From Candidatus Micrarchaeum sp. (GTDB lineage Archaea > SpSt-1190 > DYHY01), in the NCBI GenBank assembly GCA_020723935.1, contig DYHY01000004.1, positions 7,634 through 71,633 on the forward strand: a stretch of 64,000 bases of DNA, written 5' to 3'. This document shows positions 8,407-29,274 of this stretch, one piece after another (the first letter of the stretch is position 1; every line of letters begins with the position of its first letter). The notes beneath the pieces were generated by a model, which was given only the letters and a program-made list of their open reading frames with translations, was not told the origin of the DNA and searched no databases. The position numbers and the translations under genes are program-made.

Positions 8407-8991
8407 TCAGTTCACCGCCAAGGTTCCCCTCATCAAGCTGTGCCCGGAGCCGCAGGGGCGGTTGCAGAAGAATGCGAAACGCCCCTGCCTGTCCGCGGTG
8501 AACTCGACGACGACCGGCGCGTCCCCGGGGGAGAAGGACTGCGTCGCAACCCCATAGTCGGGAAGGGTGGGGCCGTGCGTCCCCGACGTGCTTGTTAGAA
8601 CGAGCCTAACGCGGTCTCCCTGGCTCACGGTTGTGGTCGACGAGTTCCAGCCGAAGGAGTATGCCTCGACCTTTATCTCCTTCATGGGCGCCTGGCCCGC
8701 CGTCGAGGAGGTGGGCGAGCTGGAGGATGAAGAGGAGGGGGATGAAGAGGAGAGGGATGAAGAGGAAGGGGATGAAGAGGAGGGGGATGAAGAGCCCTGC
8801 GAGCTTGATGTCGAACTGGATGGACTTCCTGAGCCAGCCGAAGGCATCCCCGCGTCCTGCGCTGGCCCCGTCACGCATCCCGCGACCAGGACCGCCGCCG
8901 CCAGCAGAACGGCCGCCACAACCGCAAAGGAGGCGGCCGTCTCGGGCATAGCCTTCCCGATGTTTCCCCTGAATCCCGATGCGTATCCCAT
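8407..8991 (-). CDS. cupredoxin-like (CuA-type Cys/His/Met motif) lipoprotein with Ser-rich linker
   Basis: Lipobox LVAGC after a hydrophobic signal. About 45 aa of SSSP-type linker. C-terminal FFCNRPCGSGHSLMRG resembles the CuA CxxxCGxxHxxM motif. Confidence 0.6.
   Translation of the reverse strand: MGYASGFRGNIGKAMPETAASFAVVAAVLLAAAVLVAGCVTGPAQDAGMPSAGSGSPSSSTSSSQGSSSPSSSSPSSSSLSSSSPSSSSSSSPTSSTAGQAPMKEIKVEAYSFGWNSSTTTVSQGDRVRLVLTSTSGTHGPTLPDYGVATQSFSPGDAPVVVEFTADRQGRFAFFCNRPCGSGHSLMRGTLAVN
8690..8810. repeat. 12-nt tandem coding repeats (ggatgaagagga-like) encoding the Ser-rich linker
   Basis: Five near-identical units. Antisense reading gives the EDEEEGDEEE artefact ORF 8567..9220. Confidence 0.7.
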
Positions 8992-19494: not shown

Positions 19495-20199
19495 TCAGGC
19501 CGGGCCGCCGTAGGAGGAGACTATCTTTGCAATCCGCCTCGCCGTCTCGGTCTGCGTGATGTCGGTCACGTCCAGGATGTGGACGTCCGGGAGCGCGATT
19601 GTCCTGCCGTCGCCACAATCCAGGCTCCTTGCCTGCGCGGCGAGGCGGAAGTACTTGTCCGTGAGCTCAAGCCTGCGCGTGTCGCTCTCATTCCACCTCT
19701 CGGCCGTCCCGGCGTCGCGCTTCCCGTCCTTCACGCGCTCCACAATGCGCTTGCGGTTCTCCTCGACGGTGGACACGAGTATTATCTCGGCACGCGGGAG
19801 TATTATCCCGCCCGACTCGACGGCCGAATACATGCTGTCCAGCGTCGGGCGCACCTTCTCGTCGGCCCATCCGTACTCCTCCTGCATCACGCGCAGGTAC
19901 ACCCAGACATCAAGGTACCCGCTCCTGTCCGAAAAGACGGTGGAATTCGGTGGGGCGGCGGCTAGCATGGCGGACCTCTCCCTGTGCTGGCGTATCAGCT
20001 CCTCCTCCCCTTTCAGGCTCCCTAGGAAGGGGTTGAGGGGCTCCTCGAGATAGAGCGCCCAGGGGACGAGCCTTACGAGTTCCGCCAGGGTCTCGGTTTT
20101 GCCCACGCCGTGGGAGCCGTTCACCGAAAAATAAAGTCCGTGCGTTTTCTGCGGCGACACCCTCCGGCCGGAACTTGCCCAATAAAAAGGAGATGGCAA
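19495..20199 (-). CDS. P-loop kinase, deoxynucleoside kinase-like
   Basis: Walker A GSHGVGKTE; LEEP and FSDRSGY resemble the dNK EP and ERS motifs. Track ORF extends to 20370 across the tRNA and repeats; true start is likely TTG/GTG near 20160-20199. Confidence 0.5.
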   Translation of the reverse strand: MPSPFYWASSGRRVSPQKTHGLYFSVNGSHGVGKTETLAELVRLVPWALYLEEPLNPFLGSLKGEEELIRQHRERSAMLAAAPPNSTVFSDRSGYLDVWVYLRVMQEEYGWADEKVRPTLDSMYSAVESGGIILPRAEIILVSTVEENRKRIVERVKDGKRDAGTAERWNESDTRRLELTDKYFRLAAQARSLDCGDGRTIALPDVHILDVTDITQTETARRIAKIVSSYGGPA

Positions 20200-20215
20200 C
20201 GGCGGGCGCGCTATC

Positions 20216-20323
20216 GGCCGGGCCGCGGCGGGGTCTGGAGGGCGCCGAACGAAGAGAGGGGCCCGGAACGGCCGGGCCGCGGCGGGGTCTGGAGGGCGCC
20301 GAACGAAGAGAGGGGCCCGGAAC
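20216..20323. repeat. perfect tandem duplication (2 x 54 bp) that includes the 3' terminal 10 nt of tRNA-His
   Basis: ggccgggccgcggcggggtctggagggcgccgaacgaagagaggggcccggaac at 20216-20269 and again at 20270-20323. Confidence 0.9.
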
Positions 20324-20385
20324 GGGAATCGAACCCGTGTTTGGGGATCCACAGTCCCCCAGTCTGCCACTAACTTATCCAGGCC
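20314..20385 (-). tRNA. tRNA-His (anticodon GUG) with extra 5' G-1
   Basis: Hand-folded cloverleaf. Acceptor GCCUGGA/UCCGGGC with one G-U. Anticodon stem GGGGA/UCCCC, loop CUGUGGA. T-arm ACGGG-UUCGAUU-CCCGU. Discriminator C73 pairs with G-1. TTTATAAAAG box about 30 nt upstream. No encoded CCA. Confidence 0.85.
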
Positions 20386-20873
20386 ACGATCGACTGCGAA
20401 GACTCCTGGAAGGCGCTTTATAAAAGTTAGATGCCCCGCGCTTCCTGCCGCGGCGCGCCATTTCGCCGGGCTTGGCTAGCTCCACTGCGCACAGCATCCA
20501 GAAGGCCGCCGCGCAGATGAGGAGGGCCTCCGCGAGCAGTATCAGCCAGTCGGACCCGATCCCGCGCGCGAAGGCGCGCGTCGCGGCCGCCGTCCATAGG
20601 AGGATGACGAAGAAGACGACGCCGGAATAGCCCGGCCGAAGATCCCCCCGCTGCCCCTGAGCGCCCGGACGCCCGCGACGATGGAATATGCCATGAGGCC
20701 GCCGCCGCGAGCCCGAGGAAAAGTATCGAAACAGTCAGGATGCCGCCCGTCCCCCTGCAAGCCGGCAGCGCTCAGTTTAAGGGTTCTGCCGGAAGACCCG
20801 GAACGTTATAAATGCCGGGCGGGGCCCCGCCCCCGTGCTAGGGACCAATATCGCCCTCGCGGCCGAAGCGGTG

Positions 20874-24360: not shown

Positions 24361-24460
24361 CCGAAGAGGATGGAGGGCCCGTTCTTTTCGCAAAAGAAGG
24401 GGGGTTCTGGTGCAGGAGGCCGGGCTCCGAAGAGTCCGGTTTTGTTGCACCATCTGAGGA

Positions 24461-24547
24461 TGGTGCAGGAGGCCGGATTCGAACCGACGAACCCTCTAGG
24501 GGAGCAGATCTTGAGTCTGCCGCGTTTGACCGCTCCGCCACTCCTGC
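24461..24547 (-). tRNA. tRNA-Leu (anticodon CAA), long variable arm, CCA encoded
   Basis: Acceptor GCAGGAG/CUCCUGC. Anticodon stem GCAGA/UCUGC, loop CUCAAGA. Variable arm about 17 nt. T-arm CGGUUCGAAUCCG. Ends ACCA. TTTAAAA box about 25 nt upstream. Confidence 0.85.
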
Positions 24548-29061: not shown

Positions 29062-29274
29062 TGGTGGGGTCGTAGGGATTTGAACCCTAATAAGCAGGTT
29101 TCTCCGAAACCAGCCGGAATCTCAAACCCGCTGTCCTGGCCTCCCGCTTCGAGGCGGGATTGTGCCATTCCTTCCTTTCTTTTCAGTCATCGTCTCGTGG
29201 TCCGCTGACCACTCGACTCTTAGCTCCAAGATTTCCCTGGAGCCTGCCGTAATGCCTAGTTATACGACGACCCC
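29062..29274 (-). tRNA. tRNA-Trp (anticodon CCA) interrupted by a 137-nt intron at position 37/38; CCA encoded
   Basis: Canonical 3' half GGGUUCAAAUCCCUACGACCCCACCA ends at 29062. The matching 5' acceptor GGGGUCG lies 200 nt away. Anticodon stem GCAGG/CCUGC and loop CUCCAG|A are reconstituted across the intron. Confidence 0.55.
29100..29236 (-). ncRNA. tRNA-Trp intron; possible box C/D-like element (CGAUGA-CUGA)
   Basis: ACGAUGACUGA inside the intron. Archaeal tRNA-Trp introns often carry a C/D guide. Motif complement incomplete. Confidence 0.25.

Follow-up and report, generated by a model that had tools for sequence, protein, structure and literature searches.

How does the 3′ end of a tRNA gene come to be present twice, in perfect copies that abut head to tail, while the gene itself stays whole? 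The question is raised by a tRNA-His gene within a 64-kb (64,000-nt) stretch of archaeal DNA, referred to here as the window. Two answers had been put forward in an initial annotation, which described a perfect 2 × 54-bp tandem duplication across the 3′ end of tRNA-His and read it either as the attachment-site (att) footprint of an integrative element or as the result of replication slippage, with the perfect identity of the copies taken as the sign of a recent event.

The repeat and its surroundings

TRF places a perfect tandem repeat at window positions 20215..20325 (period 54, 2.1 copies or, more exactly, 2.06, 100% matches, score 222), and a search of the whole window with the 54-mer, with up to three mismatches allowed, returns exactly two matches, 20215-20268 and 20269-20322, against a shuffle expectation of 0. 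The two methods agree on the duplication as first described, although its span, given as 20216-20385, has to be corrected: the identical stretch is 20215-20325, or 111 nt (2 × 54 + 3). Its composition was likewise described correctly as a tRNA end plus flank but miscounted as 10 nt of tRNA and 44 nt of flank. The repeated part of tRNA-His is the last 12 nt, positions 62-73 (CCGTTCCGGGCC), or 14 nt with the two encoded C of CCA added, and the trailer supplies 40-42 nt of the unit, such that 42/54 nt, or 78%, is trailer sequence. The copies follow each other head to tail with 0 nt between them, and the sequence after both is the same for 42 nt; with that identity and nothing separating the copies, the duplication is tandem in the strict sense.

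On the tRNA strand, the order is tRNA sequence ending in TTCGATTC, the first unit (CCG TTCCGGGCC CC TCTCTTCGTTCGGCGCCCTCCAGACCCCGCCGC GGCCCGG), the same 54 nt again, CCG ATAGCG and, further on, TTTTTATT and GTG. The sequence beyond the distal copy on the minus strand (ATAGCGCG...) is unique, and a search there for a third, degenerate copy gave no significant match. CCG opens each unit (CGG on the plus strand at 20269-20271 and 20215-20217), which provides microhomology at the junction and leaves the register of the unit ambiguous by these 3 nt. The left breakpoint falls at tRNA position 62, at the 3′ edge of the T loop (1-2 nt 3′ of it). The repeat is non-coding and tRNA-His remains intact, with G-1 encoded at 20385 and the discriminator C73 at 20314 followed by the two encoded C (20313-20312).

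The features of the locus and of the related loci discussed below are collected in Table 1. Upstream of the tRNA lies a TATA-like box whose conserved form, TTTATAAA, precedes every related tRNA-His, and the box is a putative tRNA-His promoter element. Downstream, the first T-run also precedes the orthologue of the next gene at the related locus L001; it is probably both the archaeal terminator of the tRNA transcript and the TATA-like element of the next gene, from whose GTG start it is separated by about 21-28 nt. This next gene encodes a kinase-like protein with a single homologue, P0002, among 5.8 billion proteins. Since it starts at GTG 20160, the repeat is intergenic. A longer in-frame ORF, 19495-20370, reads through the repeat and the tRNA and is taken to be spurious; the repeat was considered as an N-terminal extension of the kinase-like protein (in frame, 18 codons), and this was rejected because the annotated product and the sole homologue both begin at a GTG that follows the TATA-like box.

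Table 1. Coordinates of the features discussed (window positions unless a related locus is named)
Feature	Position	Strand	Basis
tRNA-His(GTG), intact	20314..20384	-	Rfam RF00005 (61 bits, E 9e-11, full length); ARAGORN
Proximal (tRNA-side) copy of the 54-nt unit: tRNA positions 65-73 plus 45 nt of 3′ flank, two encoded C of CCA included	20269..20322	-	TRF, exact pattern match, direct-repeat search
Distal copy of the unit, matching the proximal one at 54/54 positions	20215..20268	-	TRF, exact match, direct-repeat search
3-nt extension of the repeat, CCG (tRNA positions 62-64)	20323..20325	-	sequence; TRF 2.1 copies ending at 20325
New junction hairpin GGCCCGG-CCGTT-CCGGGCC, 7 bp, all G-C	20260..20278	-	sequence; RNA minimum-free-energy fold of the trailer
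TATA-like box TTTTATAAA, ~35 nt upstream of G-1	20417..20425	-	sequence
First T-run after tRNA-His, TTTTTATT, ~125 nt downstream of the tRNA	20181..20188	-	sequence
P-loop (GSHGVGKT) kinase-like gene, GTG start at 20160	19495..20160	-	P0001, 221 aa, 100% identical
tRNA-Leu(CAA) 3′-end repeat	24408..24476	-	local alignment, direct-repeat search
Relatives' tRNA-Leu(CAA) with D-loop insertion, L001	753-875	+	
Relatives' tRNA-Leu(CAA) with D-loop insertion, L004	5141-5262	-	
Relatives' tRNA-Leu(CAA) with D-loop insertion, L006	8920-9050	-	
Relatives' tRNA-Leu(CAA) with D-loop insertion, L008	5857-5982	-	

The genes around tRNA-His are ordinary (a cupredoxin, a Cu-ATPase, an SdpI-like protein, the kinase-like gene and a radical SAM/SPASM enzyme), and elsewhere the window carries an archaeal ribosomal-protein/SecY cluster, Cbf5, RtcB, AglB and CysRS. 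The closest named relatives of the radical SAM protein come from unclassified "archaeon" and DPANN-type genome bins at 42-59% identity, and the lineage is almost unsampled in sequence collections. The window also contains a tRNA-Trp(CCA) gene (29062-29274, minus strand) with a 137-nt intron at position 37, which is overlooked by default ARAGORN and by Rfam at the gathering score. This intron holds C/D-box-like motifs (GATGA...CTGA), which presumably correspond to those of euryarchaeal tRNA-Trp introns. The intron-bearing tRNA-Trp, the TATA-like boxes and the gene content just listed mark the source organism as an archaeon.

The source of the window is a metagenome-assembled contig, and one might suspect an assembly or library error laid over a genome that is truly single-copy at this site. 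We consider this very improbable on the evidence of an independent assembly. Logan contigs are constructed with k=31 such that all 31-mers are distinct, and k-mers seen once are discarded (PMC12424806). A perfect 2 × 54 repeat must therefore break a Logan contig. In SRR13164374, the sole sample found to contain this organism, the contig with the tRNA and the radical SAM gene (L002) has its first base at window position 20296, and 20296-20326 is the first 31-mer to hold the base that separates the path from copy 2 into the tRNA from the path from copy 1 into copy 2. A branch at 20296 needs two or more occurrences of the junction k-mers, which places the junction between the copies in the reads. 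This evidence is independent of the assembler behind the window. Two different assemblers thus concur, with the k=31 graph branching exactly where the junction predicts, and an assembler artefact is unlikely; a single 150-nt read could in addition span the 111-nt array, if the reads are that long. What speaks for an error is that the left Logan contig (L005) stops at 20056 rather than at the repeat, which indicates that coverage or strain variation is locally imperfect. The stop lies within the kinase-like gene, 159 nt before the repeat, at a point where the sequence offers no apparent cause; coverage may be low there, or a strain variant may be present.

Slippage as the probable origin of the duplication

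With modest confidence, we favour a recent event in which slipped-strand mispairing or template switching in replication duplicated a 54-bp segment locally and in tandem. Mechanism, recency and neutrality are what we infer; the observations themselves are a head-to-tail unit that runs from the gene into its trailer without intervening DNA, a junction present in the reads, an intact tRNA, the lack of cargo and of any recombinase match in the window ORFs scanned, a 3-nt CCG microhomology at the junction, and 7-nt inverted repeats, CCGGGCC/GGCCCGG (20314-20320 and 20272-20278), that bracket one unit. The microhomology and the inverted repeats fit slippage without proving it. The slippage reading of the initial annotation thus accords with the arrangement of the copies, their 42/54 nt of trailer sequence and the junction features, and its claim of recency is in keeping with copies that have not diverged at a single position.

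The single-copy ancestor would have read, on the tRNA strand, ...TTCGATTC-[CCG]-TT-(CCGGGCC)-CC...33 nt...-(GGCCCGG)-[CCG]-ATAGCG. In the nascent strand, the acceptor 3′ strand CCGGGCC and the trailer GGCCCGG would pair with each other and set the distal CCG beside the proximal CCG (tRNA positions 62-64). Re-annealing on this microhomology, followed by resumed synthesis, would then copy the 54 nt a second time; because the hairpin juxtaposes both CCG, such a slip would copy exactly 54 nt. With a left breakpoint within the gene and a right breakpoint in the trailer, the duplication leaves tRNA-His with a normal 3′ end, supplied by the first copy, and the second would be a non-functional 3′ fragment within a lengthened 3′ trailer that, before the first T-run, goes from about 71 nt in the inferred single-copy state to about 125 nt. 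The duplication is probably neutral. As to structure, when the inferred single-copy state is folded as DNA, the stem that brackets the unit is part of the centroid fold but not of the minimum-free-energy fold, and the folds of the trailer and region are no more stable than those of shuffled sequences (z +0.8 for RNA, +0.9 for DNA).

Several observations sit less easily with slippage. The 3-nt microhomology is minimal, and the breakpoint at position 62 matches the site of all other distal tRNA copies in the clade. This shared T-loop breakpoint would be a coincidence if pure slippage were at work, whereas it would be expected if a site-specific recombinase acts on the T loop. In addition, three independent loci have near-equal spacings of 54, 53 and 56 nt, which no model at hand explains. 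On the other side, in the related locus L004 the identity of the distal copy runs past the tRNA 3′ end into the trailer (CCATCT), as tandem duplication predicts.

Copies at other tRNA genes and competing explanations

Seven related tRNA-His loci were retrieved through the neighbouring radical SAM protein (57-65% identity), and several carry a second tRNA-His 3′ end. In L003, a 26-nt distal copy with 3 inserted nt in the T loop lies about 150 nt downstream of tRNA-His; in L004, a 23/24-nt copy lies 77 nt downstream; and in both L006 and L007, a 17/17-nt copy lies 56 nt downstream and is accompanied by a degenerate third copy. No significant downstream tRNA-His copy was found in L001, L008 or L009. 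Homology between the repeat units of L006 beyond their tRNA part is weak (p 0.024, 0.135 and 0.156).

L006 and L007 represent one species in two samples, and their tRNA-His trailers are identical over 500 nt except for one additional 45-nt unit. This unit belongs to an array in the trailer (L006 5676-5788, L007 3755-3911; JGI samples) that has 2.5 copies in the former and 3.5 in the latter. The difference is either copy-number variation or assembly collapse and, unless it is the latter, points to the gain or loss of tandem repeats in these trailers.

A further case is found within the window itself, at tRNA-Leu(CAA) (24547-24464, minus strand), whose last 16 nt (CCGGCCTCCTGCACCA, 24476-24461, encoded CCA included) recur exactly at 24423-24408. 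The copies have a 53-nt spacing with a 37-nt unrelated spacer, their local alignment score of 32 exceeds a null maximum of 26, the pair is unique in the 128 kb of two-strand window sequence, and the locus matches an independent Logan contig at 281/281 positions. L006 likewise has a 20/20 copy about 143 nt downstream of its tRNA-Leu, while the tRNA-Trp of the window has no downstream 3′-end copy. The copies start at tRNA position 61 (tRNA-His of L006, tRNA-Leu of the window), 62 (the 2 × 54 repeat) or 57 (tRNA-Leu of L006), and those of L003, L004 and L006 tRNA-Leu have insertions at 56|57.

At tRNA-Leu, a conserved ancestral trailer, CCCC.TTCTTTT.G.AAAAG, stands directly behind the tRNA in L004, whereas in the window and in L006 it is found behind the distal copy (p<0.001), and it is for this reason that the proximal 3′ end and the spacer look inserted, as at attL. 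A new proximal 3′ end arriving with new DNA while the old 3′ end is displaced is the geometry of att integration in the T loop (PMC9897764). The spacers of the older copies are not homologous to the ancestral trailers, and in the window the tRNA-Leu spacer has no homology to the sequence after the distal copy (p 0.39). Judged by their sequence arrangement, the older distal copies thus look like integration-type remnants. Spacer homology between loci, which a family of mini-elements would be expected to show, was limited to a 13-14-nt match in opposite orientation (E 0.04) between the tRNA-His unit of the window and the tRNA-Leu spacer of L006.

Two side observations concern tRNA-Leu in the relatives. 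In the L006 trailer (8702-8917), a 49-nt spacer segment, GAGGGGAAAGAAAACGAAAGCTTCGCTGGTTCTCCCGAACGAAGAGA, recurs at 96% identity about 108 nt downstream, and it is this segment that shares the 13-14-nt exact match with the start of the 54-nt unit of the window (TCTCTTCGTTCGG). Moreover, the tRNA-Leu(CAA) genes of four relatives (Table 1) have a D-loop insertion of ~35-45 nt after GGTCAA, apparently a candidate non-canonical intron, and ARAGORN wrongly labels these genes as Trp, Arg or Ala. The tRNA-Leu of the window has no such insertion, which would mean that the intron was lost or gained within the clade.

These copies bear most directly on the possibility that site-specific recombination in the tRNA-His T loop gave rise to the 2 × 54 repeat as a by-product, an explanation that we regard as unlikely though not negligible. 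Two routes can be envisioned: a tyrosine integrase or other recombinase crossing over in the T loop may have integrated DNA that later eroded, or a nick in the T loop may have triggered a local repair duplication. The repeat would then be the youngest in a series of events at the tRNA genes of the clade. Consistent with such a series, distal 3′-end copies occur at 2/3 of the window's tRNAs, in 4/7 of the related tRNA-His lineages and at one related tRNA-Leu, with left ends or internal indels all falling within positions 56-62, that is, in the T loop and its 3′ edge; the two longest perfect local direct repeats of the window outside low-complexity sequence are exactly the two tRNA 3′ ends. The displaced tRNA-Leu trailer, with its T-run behind the distal copy in the window and L006 and behind the tRNA in L004, points the same way, as does the tRNA-His trailer of L008, which corresponds to the flank of the most distal copy (DR3) in L006 (p=0.004). 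The T loop is also a known integrase sublocation (Williams 2002, as cited in PMC9897764), with which a block starting at position 62 is compatible, yet 42/54 nt of that block lie beyond the gene.

For the 2 × 54 repeat itself, the expected traces of integration are mostly missing. A direct repeat containing the 3′ part of the tRNA is there (positions 62-73 in both copies), but it does not flank any integrase-encoding foreign DNA, as there are 0 nt between the copies. Precise excision of an integrated element leaves one copy, not two, and an attL-cargo-attR arrangement could not collapse to 2 × 54 without a deletion with exact endpoints. No integrase (Phage_integrase, SSV-type), integrase fragment or Cas1 was matched in the 50 window ORFs scanned, nor was integrase or Cas1 present in the precomputed Pfam annotation of the related contigs. 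Six tRNA 3′-end patterns, that of tRNA-His included, gave 0 matches in the viral contig collection; in 185,579 species-representative genomes, neither the 54-nt unit nor the tRNA 3′ end of the window had a match; the 3′-terminal 23 nt of tRNA-His are absent from these genomes, from metagenome contigs and from viral contigs; and a degenerate clade-wide tRNA 3′-end pattern matched, among metagenome contigs, only the contig of L006 itself. An occupied site was not found either, all seven related tRNA-His loci having ordinary genes within 500 nt downstream, although the search for occupied sites and attP is a weak test because the collections hold very little of this lineage. Finally, the spacers measure only 37-123 nt, and we know of no integrative element anywhere near as small. 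The att-footprint reading of the initial annotation is therefore not borne out for the 2 × 54 repeat, which has no cargo and for which no integrase or Cas1 was found in the window ORFs scanned, no match in the viral contigs and no occupied site among the seven related loci; the underlying idea of integration fares better at tRNA-Leu of the window and in the relatives, where the copies have integration-type geometry. An origin in T-loop recombination retains some probability because the breakpoint of the repeat coincides with that of these integration-like copies.

A broader version of this thought, to which we assign a rather low probability, is that a hitherto undescribed process operates across the clade, time and again adding 40-140 nt directly 3′ of the T loop and duplicating the tRNA 3′ end as it does so, with the repeat as its youngest product, or else that the retained distal copies are selected acceptor-stem mimics. 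It is suggested by copies at 6/13 of the tRNA loci examined, by breakpoints at 56-62, by three spacings of 53-56 nt and by the ancestral trailer found behind the distal copy at tRNA-Leu and behind the most distal copy of L006 at tRNA-His. Such a process may involve a T-loop recombinase or nickase, local duplication being the way in which its aborted reactions are repaired, or perhaps gene-less miniature integrating elements.

It is improbable, in our view, that the distal copy is functional as RNA. It would have to pair with a stretch of the trailer as an acceptor-stem mimic, in which GGCCCGG/CCGGGCC reproduces G-1:C73 and pairs 1-6 of tRNA-His, and, within the pre-tRNA or the leader of the downstream gene, take part in processing or termination or act as a decoy. 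A spacer stretch complementary to the distal copy is indeed present at every locus that has one, but the probabilities of this complementarity (p = 0.17, 0.03, 0.01, 0.18 and 0.56, Fisher combination about 0.007) are biased in that the stretches were picked by eye and found by looking for them. The L004 trailer does fold as a cloverleaf-like four-way junction, and the distal copies are nearly perfect next to flanks that do not align. In general, however, the trailer folds equal shuffles, inverted tRNA copies in the spacers are nominally significant in L006 alone, the feature is absent in L001, L008, L009 and at tRNA-Trp, and the lineages all differ in position, length and extent. At the gathering score of Rfam 15, the repeat region matches tRNA only, and no other family comes near threshold, the best being terC (E 0.26) and sR48 (E 8.6). 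Among candidates set aside, the terC-like matches (E 0.26 and 0.31; 20 bits against a 39.9-bit cut-off) were judged to be chance; matches to sR48, chrB-a and mascRNA in the trailers are at chance level; and a permissive Rfam search for a second tRNA or tRNA-like gene in the trailers gave real tRNAs only.

Other known kinds of element can hardly account for the repeat: a non-canonical tRNA intron of 54 nt, for which the second copy would provide the actual 3′ exon, is suggested by the introns in the relatives' tRNA-Leu and by the 137-nt intron of tRNA-Trp, yet the first copy already yields a complete tRNA and a brute-force search for bulge-helix-bulge motifs found none with a span of 54 (tRNA-His), 53 (tRNA-Leu) or 56 nt (L006); a casposon/Cas1 target-site duplication recalls the 14-bp duplications at tRNA-Leu 3′ ends (PMC4779613), but neither terminal inverted repeats nor Cas1 were found; and a CRISPR-like unit, to which the repeat and spacer sizes bear a superficial resemblance (16+37 at tRNA-Leu, 17+39 at tRNA-His of L006), is contradicted by two 40-nt "spacers" of the 2 × 54 repeat that are identical and by the lack of a third repeat.

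Significance and comparison with known systems

Taken alone, the repeat matters little: it leaves the tRNA whole and gives no sign of a new function. As a local duplication, it would show, with support from the reads, that partial copies of a tRNA can form with no mobile element involved, and it stands as a caution for pipelines that call each repeat of a tRNA 3′ end an att site or a tRNA pseudogene. Of greater interest are the tRNA trailers of this lineage, with their many 3′-end copies and breakpoints clustered at the T loop. Leftover tRNA-end copies are unusually common in this little-sampled archaeal group, for which we know of no mobile elements, and if the pattern holds genome-wide it would imply frequent recombinase activity at tRNA genes or a structural hot spot. 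It is the clade-wide pattern, rather than the single locus, that is worth attention.

Among known systems, the attL/attR repeats of archaeal integrative elements resemble the locus in comprising a direct repeat with the 3′ part of a tRNA, in pairing a complete gene with a fragment and in having a breakpoint near the T loop. They differ in that the tRNA sequence flanks 9-23 kb of foreign DNA with an integrase, as in PYG1 of Pyrococcus yayanosii, where 44-bp repeats flank 21.4 kb (PMC9897764), whereas the copies in the window abut, are 78% trailer and come with no recombinase or cargo that could be found.

Casposons offer a second parallel, a short duplication of a target at the 3′ end of a tRNA, which in the tRNA-Leu of Methanosarcina measures 14 bp; casposons in tandem that are separated by the shared duplication alone are also known (PMC4779613). 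These elements depend on terminal inverted repeats together with a Cas1 casposase, and their duplications flank elements of kilobase size, none of which was found here.

The E. coli tyrT-tyrV locus (the rttR/tpr region) has a tandem array that, as here, starts in the 3′ end of a tRNA, in this case tRNA-Tyr, and runs into the trailer, and in both loci the first tRNA copy is intact and the later copies are 3′ fragments. TRF gives the E. coli array a period of 178, 3.1 copies, 95% matches and an overlap with tyrV of 19 nt; it is thus a bacterial repeat of 178 bp in 3.1 diverged copies, as opposed to an archaeal one of 54 bp in two perfect copies. Transcription of the tyrTV repeats gives a known small RNA and small ORF, whereas the repeat in the window shows no sign of a product. 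By analogy of arrangement, then, the 178-bp repeats of E. coli tyrTV are the closest precedent for a tandem repeat that begins within a tRNA gene, leaves the gene complete and extends into its trailer.
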